From Candidatus Jordarchaeales archaeon (GTDB lineage: Archaea > Asgardarchaeota > Jordiarchaeia > Jordiarchaeales > Freyrarchaeaceae), in assembly GCA_038858525.1 (NCBI GenBank), contig JAWCFL010000002.1, positions 1-13,090 on the forward strand: 13,090 bases of DNA, given 5' to 3'. Within the stretch, counting starts at the first letter, position 1. Every line of letters begins with the position of its first letter. This document shows positions 1-13,090 of this stretch, in pieces. The notes under the pieces were generated by a model. It saw only the letters and a list, made by a program, of their open reading frames with translations. It ran no database searches and had not been told where the DNA came from. The position numbers and the translations under genes are program-made.

Positions 1-57
1 GTTTCTGATGAAAACGAATTGGTGAAGTGGCAAATAATGAAGAAAAAAGACGAATGA
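1..57 (+). CDS. Possible 3' end of an upstream gene (…VSDENELVKWQIMKKKDE*), product unknown
   Basis: Frame 1 is open from the window edge to TGA at 55-57 with purine-rich, protein-like codons. It is too short to identify. Confidence 0.3.
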   Translation, partial: VSDENELVKWQIMKKKDE

Positions 58-134
58 ACGAGGGACGAAATTGACGAGAGAAGACATGTTACCGCAGGCG
101 GAAAACCTTAAGGGCGCGAAAATATCTGAACGAT

Positions 135-147
135 GAATAAAAAAGAG
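135..147 (-). terminator. Oligo-T terminator candidate for the hydrogenase cluster
   Basis: Minus strand reads CTCTTTTTTATTC about 12 nt after the stop of the NuoI-like gene. Confidence 0.4.
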
Positions 148-158
148 GTTGGGGGGCT

Positions 159-536
159 TTAGTCTTCCACTTCGATCCAGTTCATTTCGTCCTTGGAGTA
201 GGCTGCAAGCTCGTAGTCCTTTGTCATCTCGATGGCGCCGTTCGGACACGACAAAGTACATTGACCACAGAACATGCAGGCCGCCAGGAATATTTTGGGT
301 CTTTTTCCTGTTTTTGTTCTTTGTCCTTCGGGTCTGGTGTCTGGCACCATTGTTATCGCTCCTGTGGGGCAGTCTCTGGCACATAGGCTGCATCCATTGC
401 ACTTGTTAACGTGGTATATGTGTCTCCCGCGGTATCCTTCTGGGACTGGGAGTTTTTCGAAGGGATAGAATACTGTTGCCGGCTTTTTAGGTAGGTGTTT
501 GAGGAGTAAGGGGATTATGGCGGCTGGTCGAGGCAT
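159..536 (-). CDS. NuoI/MbhN/EchF-like 2x[4Fe-4S] ferredoxin subunit of a membrane-bound hydrogenase
   Basis: Two CxxCxxCxxxCP motifs (CNGCSLCARDCP, CMFCGQCTLSCP), N-terminal PATVFYPFEK…YRG, and SD GGGGAGGTG upstream. Confidence 0.93.
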   Translation of the reverse strand: MPRPAAIIPLLLKHLPKKPATVFYPFEKLPVPEGYRGRHIYHVNKCNGCSLCARDCPTGAITMVPDTRPEGQRTKTGKRPKIFLAACMFCGQCTLSCPNGAIEMTKDYELAAYSKDEMNWIEVED

Positions 537-551
537 CTTTATACACCTCCC

Positions 552-1844
552 CTATATAACACTTAAAGCGATCATTATTAGTATGGAGGCGGCTTTCCAC
601 TTGAAGAGGTCCAAGTAGACTGCTGCCTGTATAACTGCTATGTTAAGTATTGTTAGTGGGATAAGGTATTTCCATGCTCCGGCTTCTACTTGGTCTATTC
701 TAAACCTCGCAAACGCTGTTCTCAGGAGAGTTATCAGGAAGAGTACTGCAAAGAGTTTGATGAGGAACCAGCCTAGACCTATCATGTATCCTAGTGGTAG
801 GGCGCCGAGCATCCTTTCAAGGGGGGTTACTCCTATAGTGCTCCCCGGACCGTAAGGTCCTCCCAGGAATAGTGCGGCGGCCAAGCCTGCCCCAAATATC
901 ATTTCGAGGTCTCCTGCTGCCCTGAAGAGCGCCAGTTTCTTGCCTGAGATCTCAGTCTGCCATCCTGCAACTATCTCTGTGTGGGCCTCAGGTATGTCAA
1001 ATGGAACTTTCTCCATTTCAGCCATAAGTGATATGAGGAGCGAAGCGAATGATATCGGTGCCACCAGTATTATCGGCATCCTGGTGACTGCTTGGAACGC
1101 CGTAATGTTTCCTATAGTCAACACTTGCAGAGCTGAGAATGGCTGAAGCTGTAATATAGGAGCCACGTAAAAGGTCCAGAGCTCCGGCGCGAAGGTTGAA
1201 AGCAACAGGTATTGCTCGAAGGTTAATGCTGGAAGCTTCAACACTCCAATTAATGTTAGTATCTGAGCGACTTGTTGGGGGGTTGCCATGTAGCTTGCAA
1301 CGACAAACGCCGGCGTTATTGCGGATAGGGCTAATGGGACTTCGAAGGCTACAAGCTGCAAGCCCGACCTAACAGTTCCGATTTCTCCAAACCTGCTAGT
1401 CGTAAACCACCCTGTGAGGATCACTGTAACAGTGTACATTGTTGCCAGGAATATCACGAAGATAAGGTCTCCTTCGAAGCTTATTATTCCCGTTCCCTTA
1501 TAGACCGGCAGGAACATGACCATTGTGAGGGCTAAGGTGAAAGCCACTATGGGCGTCGCAGTCAGACTCTTAACGTCGGCCGCCCTATCTACGACGTCCT
1601 CTTTCGCCAGAAGCTTTATGAAGTCTGCCAGAGGCTGCAGGATGCCGTGCCATCCAGTGTAAAGGGGTCCAACACGGTGCTGAAGCCGCCCGTGAACCTT
1701 CCTGTCAAACCACTCGCCGAAGAGGGCTAGAGTAAACATGAAGAATGCTCCCGGAAACACTAGAATTTTAAATAGCTCCTTTACAGCTTCCAGAGCCGTA
1801 GGTTGTTGAGCGAACAAGTAAAGGAAAAGCATTTCCATGCTCAT
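552..1844 (-). CDS. NuoH/MbhM-like membrane subunit (about 430 aa, with a ~57-aa internal insertion)
   Basis: Motifs DRKVHGRLQHRVGP, GILQPLADFIKLLAKE, KVPFDIPEAHTEIVAGWQTE and RFRIDQ. The start was moved from 1910 to the ATG at 1844 because of the SD GGGGGATG and because the upstream 22 codons lie in an AT-rich promoter-like spacer. Confidence 0.92.
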   Translation of the reverse strand: MSMEMLFLYLFAQQPTALEAVKELFKILVFPGAFFMFTLALFGEWFDRKVHGRLQHRVGPLYTGWHGILQPLADFIKLLAKEDVVDRAADVKSLTATPIVAFTLALTMVMFLPVYKGTGIISFEGDLIFVIFLATMYTVTVILTGWFTTSRFGEIGTVRSGLQLVAFEVPLALSAITPAFVVASYMATPQQVAQILTLIGVLKLPALTFEQYLLLSTFAPELWTFYVAPILQLQPFSALQVLTIGNITAFQAVTRMPIILVAPISFASLLISLMAEMEKVPFDIPEAHTEIVAGWQTEISGKKLALFRAAGDLEMIFGAGLAAALFLGGPYGPGSTIGVTPLERMLGALPLGYMIGLGWFLIKLFAVLFLITLLRTAFARFRIDQVEAGAWKYLIPLTILNIAVIQAAVYLDLFKWKAASILIMIALSVI

Positions 1845-1945
1845 TTTTCCATCCCCCAGATAGGAGCACTGTCCTTCCTTCGTCCTCAACCATAATTTAT
1901 AGGTTTCCATTAAAAAATAAACTAAAAGTGTTTTTCATGGAGAAG

Positions 1946-3183
1946 TTACCACCGCTTCTCCTTCTCGTTGAACTCTCTGCTGTACCTTCGGAGCTCCTCC
2001 CTAGTCCAAGTCCAAGTCTTCTCCTTTTCAATGTCAATGAACGTGATCCTGTCCTCGCATGAGAAGCATGGGTCTATGGAAGCCAAAGCTATGGGTAAGT
2101 CTGCAATATAGCATCCCTTAAGGAGCTCTGCCACTGAGAGAATGTTCGCCATGGTCGGAGTCCTTATCTTAACCCTGTAAGGCTTATCAGTACCGTTGCT
2201 CTTCACGTAGTATATTAACTCGCCTCTCTGAGCCTCAAACCTAGCGTAAGCCTCCCCTTCAGGAACACGCCTTATGAGCTTCTCAGGCATAATGTCCCCC
2301 TTCTTAGGCATGTGGTCAAGGCACCACCTGATAATCTTAATGCTCTCGATAGTCTCAAGCACGCGCACAACCACTCTGCCAAAGGTATCACAAGTGTCCC
2401 ACGTGATAAGCTCAAAGTCCGCCTCGTCATACTTCAAGTGTGGGTCATTCTTCCTCACATCAAACTTGACTCCGGAAGCACGAATTGTAGGACCAACTGC
2501 CCCCAGCTTAACGCCAGTCACAGGGTCAAGGACACCCACGCCCTCAGTCCTCTTCCTCACCGTGCTCTCCTCAAGACACAGCTTCTTATAGTAGTTCGTT
2601 CTCTCCTCAAGGTAGTCGAGTCCCTTCCTAATTTTGTCAGCAAGCTCAGGAGAAATGTCCCGCCTCACACCGCCAAGAATATTCATTGCATAGTTAACCC
2701 TGTTACCCGAAATAGCCTCAAGCAGATCCATGACAACCTCTCTGTCCCTCCAAACATACATGAATAGCGTCTCAAATCCGATCTCCAGCCCAGCAGCACC
2801 AAGCCACAAAAGGTGACTATGAATCCTCTCCAACTCGGCAACTATAGTCCTAATGAAGTTCGCCTTTTCACTAACCTCGATCCCGCCAGCCTCCTCGGTA
2901 GCCATCATAAAAGTACACTGATGAGCGTTACTGCATATACCGCACACTCTTTCTACAAGGAAGGCCCCTTGAATATACGTCCTGTTTTCGAGTGCTTTCT
3001 CGATCCCCCTGTGGACGTATCCTATTCTGGGTTTTACGTCCACAACTGTTTCTCCTTCAACGAAGATCTGGAAATGCTCCGGCTCTTTTGCTCCCTTTAT
3101 TTGGTTTTTAGCTAAACGATGTTAGATAAAGGGATGTGCAAAGCCGGATGCTGCGGACCAACTGGTATTATTACTCGTGACAT
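1946..3183 (-). CDS. Group 4 [NiFe]-hydrogenase large subunit (NuoD/MbhL/EchE-like), two exons: join(3183-3136, 3085-1946), 395 aa after splicing
   Basis: L1 motif ERVCGIC and L2 motif DPCFSC are present, with an Mbh-like C-terminal extension and GYVHRGIEK. The ATG at 3183 has a perfect SD (GGAGGTG, 3200-3194) and encodes MSRVIIPVGPQHPALH. It rejoins EPEHFQIFVEGETVVDVKPRIG only after removal of 50 nt. Confidence 0.92.
3086..3135 (-). other. Predicted 50-nt BHB-type mRNA intron
   Basis: Minus strand: UCCGGCU-UUGC-AC|A-UCCCUUUAU…AUAAAGGGA-GCAA-AA|G-AGCCGGA. This gives a 7-bp exon helix, 4-bp central helix, two 3-nt bulges and a 9-bp intron helix. It contains an in-frame TAG (3114-3112) and shifts the frame. 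Confidence 0.88.
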
Positions 3184-3239
3184 TTTTTATTAGCACCTCC
3201 ATCAAGTTTAAAATATAAACGACCATATATTTGTTTTTC

Positions 3240-3719
3240 TTACTCCTGTGTTGGTTGCCAGTCCTTTCTGAGTGGGTAAACGCCTTCGGGCCAGTCTTCT
3301 GGGAGGATTAGGCGTTCCAGGTTTGGGTGTCCTTCGAACACTACGCCGAGGAGGTCATGGACTTCGCGTTCGTAGAAGTTGCTTGACGGCAGAATGTCGG
3401 TTATGGTTTCTAGTTTAGGGTTGGACTTGGGGACATATGTCCTCACCATGATGGCTGTTTGGGGTTCTTTGAACCTCCAGAGGTGGAATATTACTTCTAT
3501 GTTTTCTCCGAGGTCGACGCCTGTTATTGTGGAGACGTGCCATAGATCCCAGTTATCTCTCATGTACTCTACGGCTTTCCTGTGCGCTCCGGGCTTCACC
3601 TTTAGGTGGATTCTTCTTGGCCTTTTGATGTAAGCTTCTTCAAGTTGTGGTCCCAGGGCTGCTTTGAGCTCCTCGATAAGTTTTTCTTCGCTCTTAATTT
3701 CTTTCTTCTTTTTGCTCAT
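3240..3719 (-). CDS. NuoC/MbhK-like hydrogenase subunit
   Basis: Motifs HVSTITGVD, YEREVHDLLGVVFEGHP and LILPEDWPEGVYPLRKD, plus operon position. Confidence 0.93.
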   Translation of the reverse strand: MSKKKKEIKSEEKLIEELKAALGPQLEEAYIKRPRRIHLKVKPGAHRKAVEYMRDNWDLWHVSTITGVDLGENIEVIFHLWRFKEPQTAIMVRTYVPKSNPKLETITDILPSSNFYEREVHDLLGVVFEGHPNLERLILPEDWPEGVYPLRKDWQPTQE

Positions 3720-3729
3720 ATTACCCCCC

Positions 3730-4164
3730 CTACGATTTTTGGAGTTTGGCGAGGAGTTTGGCTACACCGTCTATTATTGCTTCAGGTTTGGGTGGGCATC
3801 CTGGGACGTAGACATCGACTGGGACGGCTGTGTCTATGCCTCCCTCTACTCCATAGCATCCCTTGAAGACCCCGCCTGTGCATGCGCAGTTGCCGACTGC
3901 CATAACGAACTTGGGGTCAGGAACTTGCTCGTAAAGCTTCCTAAATCTGGGTTTCATCTGCTTCGTGATTGGCCCTGTGCAGACGAGGACGTCGGCGTGT
4001 CTGGGGCTACCCATTAATATGATGCCGAAGCGTTCAACATCGAAGCGTGGCATTAACGCAGCTAGAATCTCTATGTCGCAGGCGTTACACCCACCAGTGT
4101 TTAGGTGAAGGATCCACGGTGATTTTGTTCTCGCCCACTTTACAAGCTTGCTGAGAAGACCCAT
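3730..4164 (-). CDS. NuoB/MbhJ/EchC-like [NiFe]-hydrogenase small subunit
   Basis: Motifs GGCNACDIE, SPRHADVLVCTG, AVGNCACTGG and YVPGCPPKPEAI. Confidence 0.95.
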   Translation of the reverse strand: MGLLSKLVKWARTKSPWILHLNTGGCNACDIEILAALMPRFDVERFGIILMGSPRHADVLVCTGPITKQMKPRFRKLYEQVPDPKFVMAVGNCACTGGVFKGCYGVEGGIDTAVPVDVYVPGCPPKPEAIIDGVAKLLAKLQKS

Positions 4165-4483
4165 TGTACCACTCCCAACGTGTTTACCATTTAAACTACC
4201 TTGACAGGGGAAGAATAGAATCGATCTCCCTTTTTTACTTTTTCGTTAAGAATATTTTGTTCGCTTTTTTGTTTGCATGGATAAGGAGCGTTAGCGCTAT
4301 AGTGCTTATCGGAACGATTCTTGTGATACAGGTTTACCGGATAGCTCTTTTTTCGAGAGTAGATTGTGTGTTTTGGCTTGTCATATGTAGGGGGTTAAGT
4401 GTCGTGTTATTTTTCTAGTTTATGTTAAAGTGCCCTTTTTGTTATTCTGGCATTTTCGTCATCATTACGAAAAAGTAAAAAGG

Positions 4484-4498
4484 GGGAAAGTTTTTAAT
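4484..4498 (+). promoter_or_regulatory. BRE/TATA promoter of the NuoA-like gene
   Basis: GGGAAAG-TTTTTAAT about 53 nt before the ATG at 4551. The same TTTTTAAT core preceded by purines recurs at 6044 and 7287. Confidence 0.5.
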
Positions 4499-4550
4499 TT
4501 GTGCGTCATAGTTGTTGATGGTCTTTCTTTGATTGCGTGGAGGTGGAGAA

Positions 4551-4868
4551 ATGTCTGGCCTGCTTACCTTGGGGATCGCTGTCCTAGTGAGTTTTCTGAT
4601 AGCGTGTGCGATTTACCTTACGGGAAGATTGATAGGTGCTAAGGGAGAGAAGACGCCGGGCAAGTTGGACCCTTACGCCTGTGGTGAGGATTATCCTCCT
4701 GAAAAGTTTCAGTACAGGGTGCACTTGGTTTACTACGCGATATTCTTCACATTGTTGGAGACCGCTGGTGTGATCGTGTTTACATCTTCTTTCAGTGACC
4801 CACTGTACGCGCTAATATACATGGTGTTCTTAGTAGTGGCGGCGCTCCTAGTCCTCTACAGGAGATAA
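4551..4868 (+). CDS. NuoA-like (complex I subunit A/3) membrane subunit, divergent from the hydrogenase cluster
   Basis: Three hydrophobic helices, loop KLDPYACGE (compare the YECG motif), YAIFFTLLE motif, and SD GGAGGTG before ATG 4551. Confidence 0.85.
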   Translation: MSGLLTLGIAVLVSFLIACAIYLTGRLIGAKGEKTPGKLDPYACGEDYPPEKFQYRVHLVYYAIFFTLLETAGVIVFTSSFSDPLYALIYMVFLVVAALLVLYRR

Positions 4869-4940
4869 TCTAATGAAGAGGCATCAATCCAGTTTGCCAC
4901 GCGAATAAAGTTCTTTTCCTCTTTTAAGTGCATGGTGATG

Positions 4941-4982
4941 TTTCTTTTTTGTTTTTTGTCTTTTGTTTCTGTTTTTTTGTTT
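4941..4982 (+). terminator. Long T-rich tract, likely terminator
   Basis: TTTCTTTTTTGTTTTTTGTCTTTTGTTTCTGTTTTTTTGTTT downstream of the NuoA-like gene. Confidence 0.45.
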
Positions 4983-5068
4983 GCGCGTTATTTCCCCTCT
5001 GCAGCTGACCATTGAGCTTTGGTTTCTCAAACGTAACAGTCATTTTAAGCGTGACTCTTAAGGCTGTC

Positions 5069-5081
5069 GAAAAATTATTTA
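5069..5081 (+). promoter_or_regulatory. Candidate BRE/TATA for the GcvH-like gene
   Basis: GAAAAA-TTATTTA about 40 nt upstream of the start. Confidence 0.35.
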
Positions 5082-5119
5082 GAGGGGTGGAAGCTACCTC
5101 TTTCGAGCGTTGATGGAGT

Positions 5120-5575
5120 GTGATTGGGTTGAAGTTTAAGTTTGAGCTTGAGGGCGAGACTGTTGAGGCGGAGCTTCCCGAGGATCTTTACTATCATCCT
5201 GACCATTGCTGGGCTAGAGTTGAAGGTGATAAGGTGAGGGTGGGCTTCGATGACTTTGGCCAGGTGACTGCTGGGCAGATCCTTTTCATCAGGCTTAAAC
5301 CTGCTGGCAAGGAGGTCAAGCAAAATGAGACCTTCGGCACTGTGGAGACGGGTAAGTGGGTTGGGCCTTTGAAGTCGCCAATCTCGGGGACGATAGCTGA
5401 GGTTAACCCGGAGATAAAGACGAACCCGTCACTGGTGAACAAGGATCCTTACGGAAAGGGGTGGCTAATACTGGTAAACCCGTCAAATTTAGAGAGGGAG
5501 CTCAAATCGCTCATTACGGGTGATGCTATAAAAGCGTGGATGGAGAAAGAAATTAAAGAAAGGCTGAAAAAATAA
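5120..5575 (+). CDS. gcvH: Glycine cleavage H-protein-like lipoyl carrier
   Basis: Motifs LYYHPDHCW, lipoyl-Lys motif VETGKWVGPLKSPISG, and NKDPYGKGW. The exact start is uncertain (GTG 5120 or TTG 5129). Confidence 0.9.
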   Translation: MIGLKFKFELEGETVEAELPEDLYYHPDHCWARVEGDKVRVGFDDFGQVTAGQILFIRLKPAGKEVKQNETFGTVETGKWVGPLKSPISGTIAEVNPEIKTNPSLVNKDPYGKGWLILVNPSNLERELKSLITGDAIKAWMEKEIKERLKK

Positions 5576-5745
5576 AACGAATTTATTCATCTGTTTTTCA
5601 TTTTTTGTGGTGGAAGGGTGGTGCGGTCTTCTAAACATTCAGAGGGGTTCCCCCTGTTTTTACATGCAAACTATTTTATGATGTGTCTGCTAGCGAGAAT
5701 GAGGTAAGTGTACTAACGGTTAATACGGTTAATATTATAATCCTG

Positions 5746-5924
5746 AGGGGGAAGCTTGTCTGCTTTTGGTTCAATGTGGAGGAAGGTGAGATAAAAGGAA
5801 CGTTAAACAATGATTTTGGGATGTACTAGGGGGAAGCTGAAAAGTTCGAGGAGAGATCAAGGAAGTTATGGGCTAGAAGGGGAAGCTGGTAGAAGTAATT
5901 TCCCATTACGATGAGGGGGAAGCA
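5746..5924 (+). repeat. Four dispersed copies of AGGGG(G)AAGC
   Basis: Copies at 5746, 5828, 5878 (4 G) and 5914, with an inverted partial copy TTCCCCCT at 5648-5655. Confidence 0.5.
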
Positions 5925-6036
5925 ATATTGTCCAGTGTAGTTTCAAAATGGGACCCATCAAGCTATACTTCGAGTAGTAGTGCAGAATTTTGAGTGGTAA
6001 AAAACAGTTTTCGTTATAGGTTTTATAGATTTTCTT

Positions 6037-6051
6037 GAAAAAATTTTTAAT
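6037..6051 (+). promoter_or_regulatory. BRE/TATA promoter of selD
   Basis: GAAAAAA-TTTTTAAT about 36-43 nt upstream of GTG 6087. Confidence 0.55.
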
Positions 6052-6086
6052 CGGTAGGAGAGAAGTGTTGCTGTGAAAGAAAGGGG

Positions 6087-7142
6087 GTGGAAAGGTTAGA
6101 GTACAGGATGACTAAGGTCGTAGCGCTTCACGGTTGAGCCTGCAAGGTCCCTCAAGCAAACCTAAGGATACTCCTGGAGAAGGCAGGAATCACCGTTCCG
6201 CGGAGTGTTCTGAGTGGCCCAGATGAGGACGCCGCCGTGATACGCATACGGGATGACATGGTTCTCGTGAAGACTATAGATTTCATAACGCCAAACGTTG
6301 ATGAAGGTTATGTTCAGGGGAAGATAGCGGCCGCGAATGCGACGAGTGACGTGTACAGCGCAGCCACGTGCGGGCTGCGTGCATAAGCAAAAGGAGCGAC
6401 GGAAATAGCTGGATTCTTAGCGGTTTTAGGAGTTCCTACTGATATGCCTTTAGAGATAGCGGTGGAGATTCTTCGTGGGATCAGAGATTACTTGGAAGAA
6501 GTTGGAGGATCCTTCGTTGGTGGGCACACCATATTTAACCCTTGGCCTCTTTCAGGTGGTGAAGTTACTGCTGTAGCTCACCCTGACCAGATCGTTTACC
6601 AGAGAGGCGCTAAGGTGGGGGATGTGTTCGTCTTGACCAAGCCGTTGGGGACTCAGCCAGCAATGGCCGTTTATAGGACCATTAAGGACCCAGATACTTG
6701 CGAAATGGTGCTTAGTGTGCTCTCAAGAAGAGAAGCGGAAGAGCTTGTTGAGAAGGCGATAAAGTTCATGACGACTTCTAATAAGCCAGTTGCTGAAGCT
6801 ATGCTGGAAGTTAAGCCCAACGCTGCAACGGACGTGACGGGCTTCGGGCTAGTGGGGCACGCTGAAAACATAGCTAGAGAAAGTGGAGTAGACGTTGAAA
6901 TACAGGCCATACCCGTTATGAAGAACGCGGTACAGGTTTCCGAGCTTTTTAGCTACGGGCTGGAGAGAGGTGAGGCGGCAGAGACGTCTGGTGGAATCTT
7001 AGTAGCACTGCCACGAAAAAGAGTTGACGAGTTCATGGATGCGCTAAGAAGCCGAGGAGTCACAGCTTACATCATTGGGGAAGCTAAGCAGGGCAATGGG
7101 AAGGTCACCGTGAAGCCGGATGTCGAATTAATAGAGGTTTAG
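6087..7142 (+). CDS. selD: Selenophosphate synthetase (selenoprotein, UGA 6135-6137 = Sec), two exons: join(6087-6356, 6387-7142), 341 aa after splicing
   Basis: MERLEYRMTKVVALHG-U-ACK matches the archaeal SelD LHGUACK motif. Also present: DEDAAV, KTIDFITP, AAANATSDVY|AKG, GGHT, LTKPLGTQ, TDVTGFGLVGH and AETSGG. The alternative start is ATG 6108. Confidence 0.93.
6357..6386 (+). other. Predicted 30-nt relaxed-BHB mRNA intron in selD
   Basis: GUGU-AC|A-GCGCAGCC-(ACGUGCG)-GGCUGCGU-GCAU-AA|G: an 8-bp intron helix and a 4-bp central helix with two G-U pairs. It contains an in-frame TAA (6384-6386). Removal restores SDVYAKG. Confidence 0.8.
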
Positions 7143-7164
7143 GTGATGAAGGGGGAAGATAAAG

Positions 7165-7213
7165 GCTGTTTCCTTCCACCAGAACCCCCACAGCAGTGGG
7201 CTGAGTAGACAGC
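7165..7213 (+). promoter_or_regulatory. Candidate archaeal-type SECIS in the selD 3' UTR
   Basis: Imperfect hairpin closed by GCTGT/ACAGC with core CA-GAA-CCC…GGG-C-TG. It resembles the archaeal GAA-SSS-loop-SSS-A core but has C in place of the 3' A. Confidence 0.4.
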
Positions 7214-7279
7214 AACAGGGCTATGCTAATTTTGGAATTTCATGGTCCAGCTGACCGTAACGTCTCGGAAGGAGGAAAA

Positions 7280-7294
7280 GGAAAAATTTTTAAT
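7280..7294 (+). promoter_or_regulatory. BRE/TATA promoter of the MarC-family gene
   Basis: GGAAAAA-TTTTTAAT about 41-48 nt upstream of ATG 7335. Confidence 0.5.
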
Positions 7295-7334
7295 TTCTGT
7301 CGCTTTTTTTCCCTAAAAACAATGACGTTGATTG

Positions 7335-7970
7335 ATGGTGGAATTTTTGCTTCCAGAAACCATAATGATAAACTTGATCTGCTCCCTGCCAGATTTGGTG
7401 AGAGCGTTCATTTCGTTGTTCGTGATAATGGACCCTGTAGGTAACATTCCGATCTTTCTGAGTCTTACGGAAGATATGAAACCAGAGGAAAGAAAGCGCA
7501 CGTTTCACCTCGCTCTTGTAACAGGGTTTATTCTGCTGATGTGCTTCGCCGCCCTAGGAAATTACATTTTGTTCCTTTTCGGAATAACCATAGAGAGCTT
7601 CATGATCGCCGGCGGAATACTCCTACTGGTGATCGCTTTGCGAATACTCATTCTCGGATGGAAAAGGGAGGAGTCGCTACCCTCCGAGAGCGTTGGTGTT
7701 GTCCCCATAGCTTGTCCCCTCCTAGTTGGCCCCGGAGCAATAACTACCGCCATAATGTACCTTCAAGCTTCAGGCGTCATAGTGACTACAACAGCAGTGA
7801 TTCTTTCGTTCATCGTCACTTGGCTCGTACTCAAGTTTATAGACCCGTTCAGCCGCTTTCTAGGCAAAACGGGAAGCCTTGTAATAGCACGAGTCATGGC
7901 GCTCATAATAGCAGCAATAGCAGTAGAACTCATAATTAAGGGAATAACATATATATTTAAGCCGTTTTGA
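7335..7970 (+). CDS. marC: MarC-family integral membrane protein
   Basis: Motifs FVIMDPVGNIPIF, FGITIESFMIAGGILL, VPIACPLLVGPGAIT and RVMALIIAAIAVE. The start could also be 7332 or further downstream. Confidence 0.9.
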   Translation: MVEFLLPETIMINLICSLPDLVRAFISLFVIMDPVGNIPIFLSLTEDMKPEERKRTFHLALVTGFILLMCFAALGNYILFLFGITIESFMIAGGILLLVIALRILILGWKREESLPSESVGVVPIACPLLVGPGAITTAIMYLQASGVIVTTTAVILSFIVTWLVLKFIDPFSRFLGKTGSLVIARVMALIIAAIAVELIIKGITYIFKPF

Positions 7971-8011
7971 GGGAGGCGCCCTCACAGTTTAACGTAAATT
8001 TTCCCTTTTCC
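7968..8011 (+). terminator. Hairpin plus pyrimidine tract after marC
   Basis: TGAGGG-AGGCG-CCCTCA followed by TTTTCCCTTTTCC, in the spacer between convergent genes. Confidence 0.3.
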
Positions 8012-8103
8012 TTCAAAGATGCTAAAACCAAGAAGTATTGTTACTTAAACGAAGTTGTCTGGAGAAAAGGAGGGATTTAACAAAAAGAGGGGGGAATCAG
8101 GGT

Positions 8104-9381
8104 TTACAGTTTCTCTATAGCTTTCCGAGCGGTCTTGCCACGTCCAAGCCGCTCATGTGCCTTAGCTAAGTGCCCTGCTGCTAAGGCACCAATCAGTGAG
8201 ACTTCGCCAGCTAGTGCTGCTGAACACGCTATTTCGGCGAATTTCCTTGCAAGTGTTCCGGGAGGCGCGCCTCTAATAAAGCCGCCTCCACAATCCATTA
8301 TGGACAGGGCCTCTTGATACTGTGGCAGCCACATGCCTCCCCCGATCGTTCCACATATCATCGACGGTAGTGTTAACGAGACATACAGGTCTCCGTTTTC
8401 GAGTACCTCAGCGGTCACTATCCCCATGCTACTCTCGCCTATGTGTGCTGCATCCTGTCCTGTAGCTAGCCATATGGCTGCAATTATGTTTGCGACGTGA
8501 GCGTTGAGGCCGTAGGCTGCAGCTTGTCCTGTTCCTATGTAAAGCTTCCTGTAGACTACTTCGACCATATCTTCGGGGGTGGTTTTCAGTACTTCTTTGA
8601 TGTATTCTCTTTTTAGCACGGCTTCCGCTTGCACGGTCTTTCCTCGGCCGAGGATGTAGTTAAGGGCTGAGGGCTTCTTGTCGACGCACATGTTGCCTGA
8701 AAGGGCTATGGTCTTCGCCCATGGGAACTGCTGTTCTATGTAGTTGCACACCTTGTCGCTTGCTGATGTAGCCATATTCATGCCCATGGCGTCTCCAGCT
8801 TCTGCCACGAACCGTACGAAGACGTTGCGCCCAATTATCCAGTGCTGGACGTCGACGAGTTTGAGAAATGGGTCGTCTCCTTCGAAAACCCTTTTTATTT
8901 CTTCGAAGTTTTGGTGTATCCACTCGACGAGTTTTACCGCGTGCTCCGTGTCAGGGACACATATGCATGGAGCTCTAGTTATCCCTGACTTTAGTACCCT
9001 TGCTCGCGCGCCGCCACTGGCTGTTATAGTGCGGCATCCCCTGTTAACGCTGGCTACGAGGGCGCCTTCAGTTGTGGCGAGCGGGATGAAATACTCGCCG
9101 TCCGCCACTTCACCTTTCACTCTTAGTGGTCCAGCTACTCCGAGGGGGATTTGCTGGACACCTATTGGGTTCTCGATGTTCCGGGATGCTGTCTCGTCGA
9201 GATTTATGGAGTAGCTTCCGATATGCCTAAGCTCTTTTCCCGTGATTTTTTCTATTGCCCTCCTCCTCACCCGCGCGGCGGCGTCTACACTACCCGTGTA
9301 TTTCTCTACTTCGTGAAGTTTTAATTCTCCTTTAACGAGTTTTTCGACAAGTTCTTCCTCCGACAACTCGAGACTAGTCAT
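8104..9381 (-). CDS. hmgA: Class I HMG-CoA reductase
   Basis: Motifs NIENPIG, LATTEGALVASVNRG, GDAMGMNM, SGNMCVDKK, TGQDAAH, GTIGGG and the C-terminal catalytic His (AHERLGR). Confidence 0.96.
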   Translation of the reverse strand: MTSLELSEEELVEKLVKGELKLHEVEKYTGSVDAAARVRRRAIEKITGKELRHIGSYSINLDETASRNIENPIGVQQIPLGVAGPLRVKGEVADGEYFIPLATTEGALVASVNRGCRTITASGGARARVLKSGITRAPCICVPDTEHAVKLVEWIHQNFEEIKRVFEGDDPFLKLVDVQHWIIGRNVFVRFVAEAGDAMGMNMATSASDKVCNYIEQQFPWAKTIALSGNMCVDKKPSALNYILGRGKTVQAEAVLKREYIKEVLKTTPEDMVEVVYRKLYIGTGQAAAYGLNAHVANIIAAIWLATGQDAAHIGESSMGIVTAEVLENGDLYVSLTLPSMICGTIGGGMWLPQYQEALSIMDCGGGFIRGAPPGTLARKFAEIACSAALAGEVSLIGALAAGHLAKAHERLGRGKTARKAIEKL

Positions 9382-9395
9382 TTTTTCACGCTCCT

Positions 9396-9815
9396 TTACT
9401 TTTTCTTTTCCACTTCTATTATTCCTTTTGATGAGTCTACTTTGACCCAGTCGCCTGTTTTTATCGATTCGACCGGGTCTGGGGTGACACGATGAATGAG
9501 GGGGATTCCCGCTACGACCGCTCCTATTAGTGTTACGGTGTCTGCTTTTCTCTGGATCATTGCTCTGGGAGCTAACCCCTTCTCTGCAAGGTTTATGATA
9601 ACATACGTGCCAACAGTTGAGCCGACACCCGTAGGGAAGACGAGCACGCGCCCAGCTACGCTCTCGCCCTCTAGGGGGTGGTTTTGGATGATGCCCGTCT
9701 CCGGGTTAACGTTGCCCAGAAAAGATATTGGAGACTCCGATACGAGGGCTTCCCCCTCAGCAACAGGTGACTTAAGGGCCTTTAAACCAAAACCCTTCAA
9801 GACGATTTTCGTCAT
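9396..9815 (-). CDS. DUF126 / AcnX swiveling subunit; probable phosphomevalonate dehydratase small subunit
   Basis: Motifs GEALVSESPISFLG, GRVLVFPTGVGSTVG and GAVVAGIP, adjacent to DUF521. Confidence 0.88.
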   Translation of the reverse strand: MTKIVLKGFGLKALKSPVAEGEALVSESPISFLGNVNPETGIIQNHPLEGESVAGRVLVFPTGVGSTVGTYVIINLAEKGLAPRAMIQRKADTVTLIGAVVAGIPLIHRVTPDPVESIKTGDWVKVDSSKGIIEVEKKK

Positions 9816-10984
9816 TGTTTAGACCCCAATGCCGCTTTCACACATTTCTCAGTTGGCTGAAGAGAAGCTTCCATCTTGTTCATTGAGGGAGCGTAATGGG
9901 CTGCTTTGGCGGAATCCGTCAACAGACCACTGAAGCCTTTTAACGGGGCAACTATGGGGCATGTGTCGCAGAAGACCTTTCCTCCAGCCCGCTCTATTTT
10001 CTGGACGAAGCCCATTTGCTCCCCGAGGCACTTAACCTGCCGGGAAGTGAAGATCCAGAGAGGAGTCTTAACCCGCTTCCCCTCAACGATTTCAGCCACT
10101 CTCCTCAACTCATATATTGAGTAGTGAGGGCAACCTAGCATAACGACGTCCGGTTCTCCCGTCAGGCTAAATGATTCAAAAACCTCATTAATTTCTCCTT
10201 TACCTATTTCTATTTTTTCTAGGTTTTCAGTTACCTCCACTGACCCCCAATAATACAAAGCAACTGCACCAGATGCTGCCGCGGCAGATGACAGGTGCTT
10301 TGCTTCAACTAGTGGGAGAGGATTATCGCTCTGTATCAGGGGGACTGCATCTCCGAAGTCTTTTCCGATAAGGTATCCCAGGGCGCCGTAATGTGTTGGG
10401 GACTCTAGGGCAACGTTGACTTTCACCCTTACGGTGGGAAGCCTGTTTTCATCTAAGTGGAGCCCGTAAAGAGGGGTTTTTCCCGTTATTGCTGATGCGA
10501 GGGCTGAAAGACCGCTTTCTCTGTTTGTCCGCGCGTTCAAGTATGAGTTGATGAAAGCGACAGCTGACGACTCTGCGAAGGAGACGTGAGCACCCCTAGC
10601 TGGAATATTTCCAGCTTCATACGGAGTGCAGCTACACGTCGCAAAAACACCCATTCTCTCGTAAAGAGAAATGATCTCCTTCTGCTTCTCAAAAAACGTT
10701 TCCTCGACCCCCATCTCCCTCCACCTTTCAAGATCCACTCCTCCCGGATTCAGTGTGGCGGGGATTAGCGTCCTGGATCCCAGAGAAGAGAATTTTTTTA
10801 GTGTTGTTAGGAGAGCGTCTCCCCCCGTTTTGTACGACACACCTGAAATGTGGGCGCTTTGTATTGGTATAAGGCGCTCTGCCTCAAAGAAGTCCCCTAA
10901 GGAGCAGAGCACCCTCATCGCTAGGCTTACCGCCTCGCCGTATTCGCCGTCCAGTGCCTTCTCCTCTTCTTTAGTCAGATACAT
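9812..10984 (-). CDS. DUF521 / AcnX catalytic subunit; probable phosphomevalonate dehydratase large subunit
   Basis: Motifs MYLTKEEE, AHISGVSY, TLNP, CSCTPY, AESSAV, NRESG, LGCPH, DTC and DSAKAAHY. The start is placed at ATG 10984 (MYLT). Confidence 0.9.
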   Translation of the reverse strand: MYLTKEEEKALDGEYGEAVSLAMRVLCSLGDFFEAERLIPIQSAHISGVSYKTGGDALLTTLKKFSSLGSRTLIPATLNPGGVDLERWREMGVEETFFEKQKEIISLYERMGVFATCSCTPYEAGNIPARGAHVSFAESSAVAFINSYLNARTNRESGLSALASAITGKTPLYGLHLDENRLPTVRVKVNVALESPTHYGALGYLIGKDFGDAVPLIQSDNPLPLVEAKHLSSAAAASGAVALYYWGSVEVTENLEKIEIGKGEINEVFESFSLTGEPDVVMLGCPHYSIYELRRVAEIVEGKRVKTPLWIFTSRQVKCLGEQMGFVQKIERAGGKVFCDTCPIVAPLKGFSGLLTDSAKAAHYAPSMNKMEASLQPTEKCVKAALGSKQ

Positions 10985-12272
10985 AATCCTCAACTCTTAT
11001 TAATTCATACCCGGGGATCCTAGCGGGAAGAAACTTCTCTCGCGGCTTGTCGAAGGGTATAGTGGCGTCAACCCCAACTTTAGTTGTCTCCCGTGTTCTC
11101 TGGTCAGCGGACGGGTCGAGCGATGACCCTTTGCCAGCAACTACGACGAGGTTCTTTGATGCTTGGAAGCGCGTAGCTATAGCGTACTCGACTGAGTATG
11201 GGTCGTGAATATCTATGTCTTCATCAACCACTACCACGTGCTTCAGTGACTTGTGCGCTCTGAAGGCCGCCTCTATCGCCTTCAATCCGTCGTCAGGATT
11301 CCTTTTCTTTATTTTAACAACGCAGTGGAGCCACGAGCACCCTCCAGGTGTTAGGAGGACATCCAGGCACTCGCAAAACTTACCGACTTCCCGGTATATT
11401 GCCGGTTCCCTAGGTAGACCCATGAGGATTCTATGCTCCATCCCTCCTGGAAGTATTGCTTGGTATATCGCGTCCTTCGCGTGAGTGAAGCGGCGCACCT
11501 CGACCACGGGTTGCTCCCGCACTATATCATATGTCCCTGTTATGTCTGGAAAGGGACCTTCCTCCACTAGTTCCTTGGTTATTCTTGCCTCTAGAAGTAT
11601 TTCAGCGTCGGCTGGAACCTCCAAGTCGACGGTCCTACATTTAGTGAGCTTCAATGGCTTTAAGCTGTTGGCTATAGTGTACTCGTCGACGTCGGGTGAA
11701 AGCGAGGTGGCTGCTGCAACGAGGACTGAGGGAGGGTTTCCTATGGTTATGGCGGCATCGAGCTCGCCTCCAGCCCGCTTAAGATACAAGTCTAAGTCCC
11801 TGTCTTCTACAACCCTTATAGCAAAGCGCTTTTCATCTAAAAGCATAAGTCTATGAAAGCTAATGTTACGTCCGTACTCAGGATCACGCACAGTGACCAC
11901 GCCAGCAGTCACGTATGGTCCACCATCTCGCTCCATATGGGTCAGTATAGGGAGGCGGGTCAGGTCTAGGGGCTCAACAACCTCGAAGCAACGTCCGTCG
12001 CTTACTACTTCTGGCTCTGTCGGGTTTTCCATGGCTTCAGCGATCCTTCTCAGAAGGCCTTGGACCGATACGCCAAGCCCTCCTGCCAGCAGTTCCCTGC
12101 TCGAACACAGATTTCCTGCCACCCTAAACTTGCTTCCCTTAACATTCTCGAAGATTATAGGTTTACCATCAACTTTCTTCATCAAAGCAGGGATTTCGTA
12201 TCTGGTTGATACAAGCTTCTTGACTTTGATAAGAAGCCCTTTTTCCTCTAGCCAAGACAGGAAGTTTCTCAT
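10971..12272 (-). CDS. UbiD-family prFMN-dependent decarboxylase; probable trans-anhydromevalonate 5-phosphate decarboxylase
   Basis: Motifs DGGPYVTAG, EGPFPD, VVVVDEDIDI, AIATRFQ, GSSLDPS and KVGVDAT. The specific function is inferred from the mevalonate-operon context. Confidence 0.88.
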   Translation of the reverse strand: MRNFLSWLEEKGLLIKVKKLVSTRYEIPALMKKVDGKPIIFENVKGSKFRVAGNLCSSRELLAGGLGVSVQGLLRRIAEAMENPTEPEVVSDGRCFEVVEPLDLTRLPILTHMERDGGPYVTAGVVTVRDPEYGRNISFHRLMLLDEKRFAIRVVEDRDLDLYLKRAGGELDAAITIGNPPSVLVAAATSLSPDVDEYTIANSLKPLKLTKCRTVDLEVPADAEILLEARITKELVEEGPFPDITGTYDIVREQPVVEVRRFTHAKDAIYQAILPGGMEHRILMGLPREPAIYREVGKFCECLDVLLTPGGCSWLHCVVKIKKRNPDDGLKAIEAAFRAHKSLKHVVVVDEDIDIHDPYSVEYAIATRFQASKNLVVVAGKGSSLDPSADQRTRETTKVGVDATIPFDKPREKFLPARIPGYELIRVEDYVSD

Positions 12273-12302
12273 GATACTCTAGGCACCTCTCGAAGTTACA
12301 GC

Positions 12303-12725
12303 CTAGCACTTTCTTTCTGGAGCACCATTAGCATTTAAAATTGGCCTAAACTTGTAGCCGTAGTATATGGGTCCTTCCCGCCCATTTTCCTTTACTTTCC
12401 TTATCACGGCTTCTACGTCTACGTCTAGGTCTAGCTTGTTAGGGTCTGCGTCAGTTATTTGTGCCGTTATATGTGTTCCGTCTTCAAGCCTGACGAGGCC
12501 AACTATGTAGGGAGTGTAAAGCTCAAACCCCTTGGGCGGGGTGTGTATCACGGTATACGTCACCAGTTTCCCTTTCGTTGGAAGCTTCTTCTTTTCTAGC
12601 TCCCTTGAACCGCACTCGGTGCACAGTTCCCTCGGAGGGAAGTATGTCGTTGAGCACTTAGGACAGAAAACCGCCTCGAGGCGGTACCTTTGAGGAATTT
12701 CTCTCCAGAGGTTGGACGGCAACAT
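12303..12725 (-). CDS. DUF35 Zn-ribbon/OB-fold scaffold partner of thiolase and HMG-CoA synthase
   Basis: CPKC…CTEC zinc ribbon, WREIPQRYRL and YGYKFRP motifs, SD GAGGTG before ATG 12725, and position directly after thiolase. Confidence 0.92.
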   Translation of the reverse strand: MLPSNLWREIPQRYRLEAVFCPKCSTTYFPPRELCTECGSRELEKKKLPTKGKLVTYTVIHTPPKGFELYTPYIVGLVRLEDGTHITAQITDADPNKLDLDVDVEAVIRKVKENGREGPIYYGYKFRPILNANGAPERKC

Positions 12726-12735
12726 ATTAAACACC

Positions 12736-13090
12736 TCACTTAGCTTTAAACACGTGAACTATAGCGGACGTACCAAATCCACTTGTGTTGTGTGACAGCC
12801 CTATTCGGGCATCCGGCACCTGCCTTTTACCAGCGTCACCACGCAACTGGAGAACTATTTCTGCGGCCTGGTATATTCCAGTCGCTCCTATCGGGTGGCC
12901 GCGCGCCTTTAATCCCCCGGATGGGTTTATCGGTATTTCACCGTCTAGGCTTATCAAGCCTTCCTCCACCGCCATCCATCCTTCACCCTTCCTCACGAAG
13001 CCAAGATCCTCTATGGCTAAGATCCCAGCTATCGAGAAAGAGTCGTGAACTTCTGCCACATCCACGTCCTCGGGGGTTATGTTAGCCATC
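12736..13090 (-). CDS. Acetoacetyl-CoA thiolase (archaeal type), C-terminal part; truncated by the window edge
   Basis: Motifs [27 protein letters not shown] and QLRG…RQV. Confidence 0.93.

Follow-up and report, generated by a model that had tools for sequence, protein, structure and literature searches.

In Archaea, splicing of messenger RNA (mRNA) at introns with a fold of the bulge-helix-bulge (BHB) type has been confirmed only for cbf5 in the literature that we searched, other cases being merely predicted, and the BHB introns of the cbf5 pre-mRNA are found in members of the Crenarchaeota, among them Aeropyrum and Sulfolobus (PMC2738675). In Jordarchaeia, an Asgard class that some authors call Freyarchaeia, 92-95% of the transfer RNA (tRNA) genes bear introns in the published genomes of the group (PMC11291895), and protein-coding introns are not mentioned in the papers on the tRNA introns of Freyarchaeia/Jordarchaeia and Atabeyarchaeia (PMC11291895; bioRxiv 10.64898/2026.10.13.758758). 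Here we report a 50-nt insert with canonical BHB geometry in the gene for the catalytic subunit of a [NiFe]-hydrogenase, located in a 13,090-nt stretch of DNA, hereafter the window, from a Jordarchaeia genome (Candidatus Jordarchaeales archaeon, GenBank assembly GCA_038858525.1, contig JAWCFL010000002.1, positions 1 to 13,090). The source genome is a metagenome-assembled draft of 2.09 Mb in 63 contigs and is 92.7% complete; its congeners include the metagenome-assembled genomes (MAGs) QC4 and LHC_1308 (PMC11291895). Judging from the sequence and its relatives, we consider it likely that the insert is an intron removed from the mRNA of this MbhL/NuoD-like subunit through cleavage by the splicing endonuclease EndA and joining by the ligase RtcB, and that it was probably gained recently in this species.

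The crenarchaeal cbf5 intron, reportedly described in studies by Watanabe (2002), Yoshinari (2006) and Yokobori (2009), offers the first comparison, and it was also the known archaeal mRNA intron named by an initial annotation of the window that had been made from its letters alone. Like the hydrogenase insert, it is short, lies inside the coding frame, builds its BHB partly from exon sequence, is mis-annotated by gene callers and shows lineage-specific presence and absence; its host has two EndA subunits, and the tRNA-splicing endonuclease excises it there, to which two paralogous genes and a predicted splicing event correspond here. The two cases differ in that cbf5 is an RNA-modification gene whereas the interrupted gene here encodes an energy-metabolism enzyme of an Asgard host, and in that the hydrogenase intron is limited to one species, an indication that it was gained recently. 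The BHB introns in the tRNA genes of Freyarchaeia/Jordarchaeia and Atabeyarchaeia share with it the lineage, the presumed enzymes, the motif rules and a very high intron load, but the hydrogenase intron interrupts an open reading frame (ORF), so that splicing must precede or compete with translation. A more distant likeness is found in eukaryotes, where the mRNAs of HAC1 and XBP1 are cleaved by IRE1 and joined by a tRNA ligase or RtcB. There too, a short intron is removed from an mRNA independently of the spliceosome by a structure-recognizing protein endonuclease, a tRNA-type ligase (RtcB in metazoa) joins the exons, and removal changes the reading frame; however, the endonuclease is IRE1 rather than EndA/Sen, the structure recognized is a different one, and the process is regulatory.

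The hydrogenase gene lies on the minus strand of the window, where a GGAGGTG Shine-Dalgarno (SD) sequence, also kept in the orthologues, precedes an ATG and a first exon, MSRVIIPVGPQHPALH, that matches residues 1-16 of intronless orthologues. The initial annotation had read this start, followed by a 50-nt AU-rich insert with an in-frame TAG, and the reading holds on this strand: the insert has a GC content of 32% against 47% for the genome, and if it is not removed the frame from the ATG reads on through IPLSNIV to the TAG. With its internal stop and a length that is not a multiple of three, the insert blocks translation unless it is removed. Beyond it, the second exon matches the Pfam families Complex1_49kDa (1.2e-75) and NiFeSe_Hases (6.3e-14) and contains RVCGICSNAH and DPCFSCEDR, the two nickel-iron ligand motifs, and the combination of a NuoD-like fold with RxCGxCxxxH and DPCxxCxxR/H places it among the large subunits of group-4 [NiFe]-hydrogenases. 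For a 95%-identical intronless orthologue, the best match of solved structure is Pyrococcus furiosus MbhL (6CFW chain L, E 8e-87), and the alignment runs across the junction, starting at IPxGPxHPxLxEPExF, with HPALHEPEHF in the junction region corresponding to HPGLEEPEKF of MbhL. The P. furiosus protein has the same nickel-iron cysteine motifs but its sequence is uninterrupted. The interrupted gene is the sole NuoD/MbhL homologue in the genome.

Together with its flanks, the insert forms a canonical hBHBh' structure: an exon helix of 7 bp, a central helix of 4 bp and an intron helix of 9 bp, with 20 of 20 pairs Watson-Crick, and two 3-nt bulges on opposite strands with the 4-bp helix between them (Table 1). 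A strict scanner recovered exactly the helices and bulges that the initial annotation had described. Cutting by the EndA rule removes precisely the 50 nt and joins GCUUUGCAC to GAGCCGGAG (with a longer left flank, GCTTTGCAC to GAGCCGGAG), giving a product of 395 amino acids (aa). When both strands of the entire genome were scanned for motifs with Watson-Crick pairs only, this one ranked first with a combined exon and intron helix length (h+h') of 16, the next having 13, and no match to the decoy geometries reached 14 or more. At h+h' of at least 10, the true geometry gave 20 matches versus 1 and 9 for two decoy geometries, which were used in place of a reversed-sequence null; reversal leaves the symmetric BHB geometry as it is and the counts identical, so that null is invalid. 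The fold z-score at 37 °C is -3.9, and at 75 and 85 °C the canonical BHB is the unconstrained minimum free energy structure (ViennaRNA). An Rfam search of the whole window matched no family, and no C/D-box motif was seen by eye in the insert.

Comparison with related genomes locates the same 50 nt independently of the fold. Exactly this segment is absent from the orthologues in four relatives, three of them congeners (G001, G002 and G003) and one a member of a sister genus in the same family (G004). The gap in the MAFFT alignment falls at cac↓gag, and since its edges cannot slide, it coincides with the cut sites of the EndA rule; the initial annotation, which had derived the removal of 3135-3086 and an in-frame 395-aa protein from that rule and had proposed an orthologue alignment as a check, thus named the very segment that the relatives lack. 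The joined protein runs colinear with these orthologues and has no gap at the junction, two of them aligning over residues 1-395 at 94-95% identity, and 16 more distant orthologues are likewise uninterrupted at the insert site.

Within the species itself, the identical insert was present at 11 of the 11 independent loci aligned from Logan, ENA, NCBI and JGI assemblies, representing at least 3 Sequence Read Archive (SRA) runs, 2 ENA assemblies, 5 other NCBI MAGs and 1 JGI metagenome contig. Samples in which the species is present include those of SRR21619491, SRR21619494 and SRR27730034. Own-species diversity amounts to 0-4 substitutions per 1270 nt, none of them inside the insert, and a scan of metagenome contigs for the insert returned the same allele only. 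On these alignments, one species has the insert fixed and its nearest relatives lack it, so that the most parsimonious history is a gain on this species' own branch, probably a recent one.

The surrounding gene was compared with its relatives in two respects. First, the exon codons on either side of the insert pair with each other, as the initial annotation had pointed out, and they do so at 7 of 7 positions, compared with 0-6 of 7 (mode 3) at 99 intronless orthologous loci; none of the 43 loci with identical P-A...E-P-E residues reaches 7 of 7. Wobble positions decide five of the seven pairs, and each of the five permits pairing in this gene. The exon sequence has either adapted to the intron, or pairing of this kind was already there and the intron could become established nowhere else. 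Second, the gene has no stop and no frameshift outside the insert, and its own branch carries 69 synonymous changes against 17 non-synonymous nucleotide changes, the latter amounting to about 10 conservative replacements when they are collapsed by residue and AGT/TCA serine switches are set aside. This substitution pattern, which resembles that of the intronless relatives, shows purifying selection on the hydrogenase gene.

The enzymes for such a reaction are encoded in the genome. Profile searches gave two matches to the EndA family (PF01974; 110.7 and 80.6 bits) and one to the RtcB family (PF01139; 601.5 bits). The EndA genes lie in the regions C3:81835-82089 and C43:5978-6235, the RtcB gene at C1:35280-36587. 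The EndA paralogues have 191 and 198 aa; the first is closest to A. pernix EndA chain 3P1Z_B (E 1.6e-48), which we take to be the catalytic subunit, and carries Tyr/His/Lys in the alignment as read, in which the other appears to be without the His. This is consistent with a structural role for the His-less paralogue and a catalytic-like one for the other. ARAGORN found no more than 5 tRNA genes without an interruption, a number that rises to 11 once introns in the anticodon loop are allowed; in a genome of this completeness, almost every tRNA gene must then be split, often at a non-canonical site, and the low count fits the intron load published for this group (PMC11291895).

In the pathway that we propose, the 7-bp helix would form in the transcript between the His-Pro-Ala codons of exon 1 and the Glu-Pro-Glu codons of exon 2, the Leu codon and the first base of the His codon would pair with the 3' end of the intron in the 4-bp central helix, and the intron would close on itself through the 9-bp helix. 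The two 3-nt bulges would then be offered to EndA, probably an alpha-beta enzyme of two subunits, which would cut each after its second base; RtcB would ligate ...UUGCAC to GAGCCG..., and the intron would probably be circularized. Only the spliced mRNA would encode the 395-aa protein with its conserved GPQHPALHEPEHF N-terminus, the unspliced message giving a 23-aa peptide, and the enzyme can thus probably be made only after its mRNA has been cut and rejoined. It is in this sense that we infer cleavage and ligation of the hydrogenase mRNA in vivo.

Several observations weigh against an EndA/RtcB-spliced intron. At 37 °C, a near-identical fold with an internal loop is favoured, and the BHB-enforced fold lies 1.5 kcal/mol higher (ViennaRNA). 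The insert is invariant in all own-species alleles, and covariation is therefore uninformative and lends no support. Neither a donor nor a related copy of the insert was found, as it is single-copy in its own genome and absent from 10 other Jordarchaeia species genomes. The signal of purifying selection may largely predate the insertion, because the insertion may have occurred at any point along a long branch (about 15% nucleotide divergence). Finally, GTG 3043 has an SD-like GGAG 8 nt upstream of it, so that a truncated protein starting there is conceivable.

The alternative that survives best builds on the last of these points. The insert might be retained, leaving either a young pseudogene or only a truncated 365-aa large subunit from GTG 3043, which we regard as unlikely. 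Gene callers do pick this GTG, as the initial annotation had anticipated in expecting an N-terminally truncated gene: the 365-aa product is recorded on 21 contigs, and within the protein cluster at 90%, alleles at least 98.7% identical to this one have full-length calls of either 365 aa or 384 aa, the longer form starting inside the insert. The same cluster lists 3 shorter fragments of own-species alleles, and its uninterrupted 395-aa members are at most 95.9% identical in protein to this allele. The splicing of the hydrogenase mRNA is itself a prediction, and the diversity among own-species alleles is too low to reveal selection since the insertion. Yet the truncated form would be without the conserved GPQHPxLxEPExF segment, which is present in every orthologue and in MbhL, and without the stretch that follows it, and at the codon of GTG 3043 the orthologues have GTC, which is no start codon, so that the GGAG is simply coding sequence for V-E-G-E. 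A random insertion would not land in such a way that a perfect BHB of 20 bp cuts it out to the nucleotide, nor would it be expected to meet a 7/7 exon helix unmatched at 99 orthologous loci. Exon 1, the SD sequence and the whole operon are intact in what is the only copy of the gene, and cbf5, which in the same genome is split likewise at the Asp codon of its catalytic motif, is not plausibly a pseudogene.

A ribosome that hops over the 50 nt is far less probable still. The comparison comes from gene 60 of phage T4, where translation bypasses a coding gap of 50 nt, and the equal gap length and the presence of a stable hairpin recall that system. Here, however, take-off and landing codons do not match (take-off would be at CAC, with AAA before resumption), no stop directly follows take-off (AUC comes next, TAG only 7 codons further on), the geometry is one specific to EndA substrates, and other inserts in the genome have the same BHB geometry but different lengths (20, 30 and 30 nt). 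We therefore rejected translational bypass of the T4 gene 60 type. The draft state of the metagenome assembly might suggest that the insert arose in assembly or sequencing, or is a rare variant confined to one sample, and the initial annotation had named an assembly artefact as a possible refutation. This explanation has a negligible chance and is excluded by the identical insert in all eleven independent loci.

The hydrogenase gene is not the only protein gene of this genome with an insert of BHB type. In cbf5, a 30-nt in-frame insert with an internal TGA (C1:177182-177211, plus strand; h = 4, H = CACU/GGUG, h' = 10) splits the motif GTL↓DP, the Asp of which is presumably the catalytic residue. 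In ppsA, the gene for phosphoenolpyruvate (PEP) synthase, a 20-nt insert (C1:42657-42676, plus strand) separates two frames that cover positions 2-113 and 115-317 of the Pfam family PPDK_N. Within the window, selD (plus strand, ATG 6108 to stop 7142) holds a 30-nt in-frame insert at 6357-6386 with an internal TAA, a central helix GUGU/GCAU, bulges AC↓A and AA↓G and an 8-bp intron helix GCGCAGCC/GGCUGCGU, with no clear outer helix; excision gives SDVY↓AKGATEIA, which we take to match the SelD consensus. As these inserts share the BHB geometry, the organism evidently depends on BHB splicing, mRNAs included, insofar as sequence can tell. The selD frame also contains a TGA at 6135-6137 (plus strand) in the context MTKVVALHG-U-ACKVP, a position that we assume to be the catalytic Cys/Sec site of SelD. 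The organism probably uses selenocysteine (Sec), in which case selD would need Sec recoding plus splicing.

In the congener G002, the hydrogenase gene is without the 50-nt insert but has a 59-nt insert of its own within the nickel-binding motif CGICSNA↓H. Its BHB is a relaxed one, with a central helix CGCG/CGCG, bulges CA↓A and AA↓U, a long intron helix and no outer helix, and excision by the EndA rule restores GICSNAHTTC. The same G002 gene shows no obvious ATG, GTG or TTG start after its SD sequence. A genome-wide census of ORF-merging motifs with relaxed BHB geometry (G-U pairs allowed) showed no enrichment, with 2611 matches versus 2629 for the decoy, and since it was swamped by gene starts and adjacent gene pairs it yields no intron count. 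Strong Watson-Crick hBHBh' motifs of 68-127 nt also stand directly upstream of long frames at C15:3202-3311, C11:34768-34835 and C8:12976-13102 (plus strand); these could be long introns near the 5' end, as in the hydrogenase gene, or chance or untranslated-region structures.

We lean slightly towards the broader view that the recent species-specific intron is one event among those by which EndA-dependent introns continue to spread from tRNA genes to many protein genes of Jordarchaeia. If this is true, energy metabolism (the hydrogenase and ppsA), selenium metabolism (selD) and RNA modification (cbf5) would all be affected, and G002 would have gained a different insert in the same hydrogenase gene independently. 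A close prokaryotic relative of eukaryotes would then routinely need mRNA splicing before translation and would still be gaining mRNA introns, and splicing could gate hydrogenase expression as well. The hydrogenase insert is an unusually clean case, in that a perfect motif, a nucleotide-exact match of cut sites to intronless orthologues and an exon sequence tuned to the helix come together in a core energy-conserving enzyme of an Asgard lineage, and because close relatives are without the intron, it would provide an example, with a date, of a protein gene that gained an intron. The case further illustrates how automatic annotation truncates such genes, as every own-species database allele found has 365 aa, 384 aa or is a shorter fragment, and it raises the question of how unspliced messages escape translation where transcription and translation are presumably coupled.

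Around the hydrogenase gene, NuoB-like and NuoC-like genes upstream and a NuoH/MbhM-like gene downstream are intact (Table 1), and in other assemblies a ferredoxin-type (NuoI-like) gene comes after the NuoH-like gene. Together, these NuoB/C/D/H/I-like genes are a module of a group-4 membrane-bound hydrogenase; set beside P. furiosus MbhL, the operon here shows only this module in the window.

Table 1. Positions of the hydrogenase gene, its insert and neighbouring genes in the window, and of the separate insert in congener G002 (↓, predicted cut)
Feature	Position	Strand	Remarks
NuoB-like small subunit	4164-3730	minus	Pfam Oxidored_q6; intact; upstream in operon
NuoC-like subunit	3719-3240	minus	Pfam Complex1_30kDa; intact; upstream in operon
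Shine-Dalgarno GGAGGTG	3194..3200	minus	read from sequence; 10 nt 5' of ATG
Exon 1, ATG + 15 codons	3136..3183	minus	MSRVIIPVGPQHPALH; ATG = 3183-3181
Exon helix h, 5' strand UCCGGCU	3142..3148	minus	His-Pro-Ala codons; pairs with AGCCGGA
Central helix UUGC with GCAA	3141-3138 with 3091-3088	minus	4 bp; GCAA inside insert
5' bulge AC↓A	3137-3135	minus	3 nt
BHB-type insert, 50 nt	3086..3135	minus	read from sequence; in-frame TAG at 3114-3112
Intron helix h', UCCCUUUAU with AUAAAGGGA	3134-3126 with 3100-3092	minus	9 bp
3' bulge AA↓G	3087-3085	minus	3 nt
Exon helix, 3' strand AGCCGGA	3084-3078	minus	7 bp with 3148-3142
Exon 2, 379 codons + stop	1946..3085	minus	EPEHF...GYVHRGIEK; frame start EPEHFQIFVEGETVVDVKPRIGYVHRGIEK
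GTG taken as start by gene callers	3041..3043	minus	365-aa truncated product; internal Val codon if spliced
NuoH/MbhM-like membrane subunit	552..1910	minus	Pfam NADHdh 1.1e-74; intact; downstream
59-nt insert of G002	L005 2532-2474 (G002:C1, ~549.9 kb)	minus	relaxed BHB

Upstream of the hydrogenase operon, the spacer at 4170-4530 contains no long frame on either strand, and two divergent genes, read by eye, encode a NuoA-like small membrane protein (4533-4868, plus strand) and a GcvH-like protein (5114-5575, plus strand).

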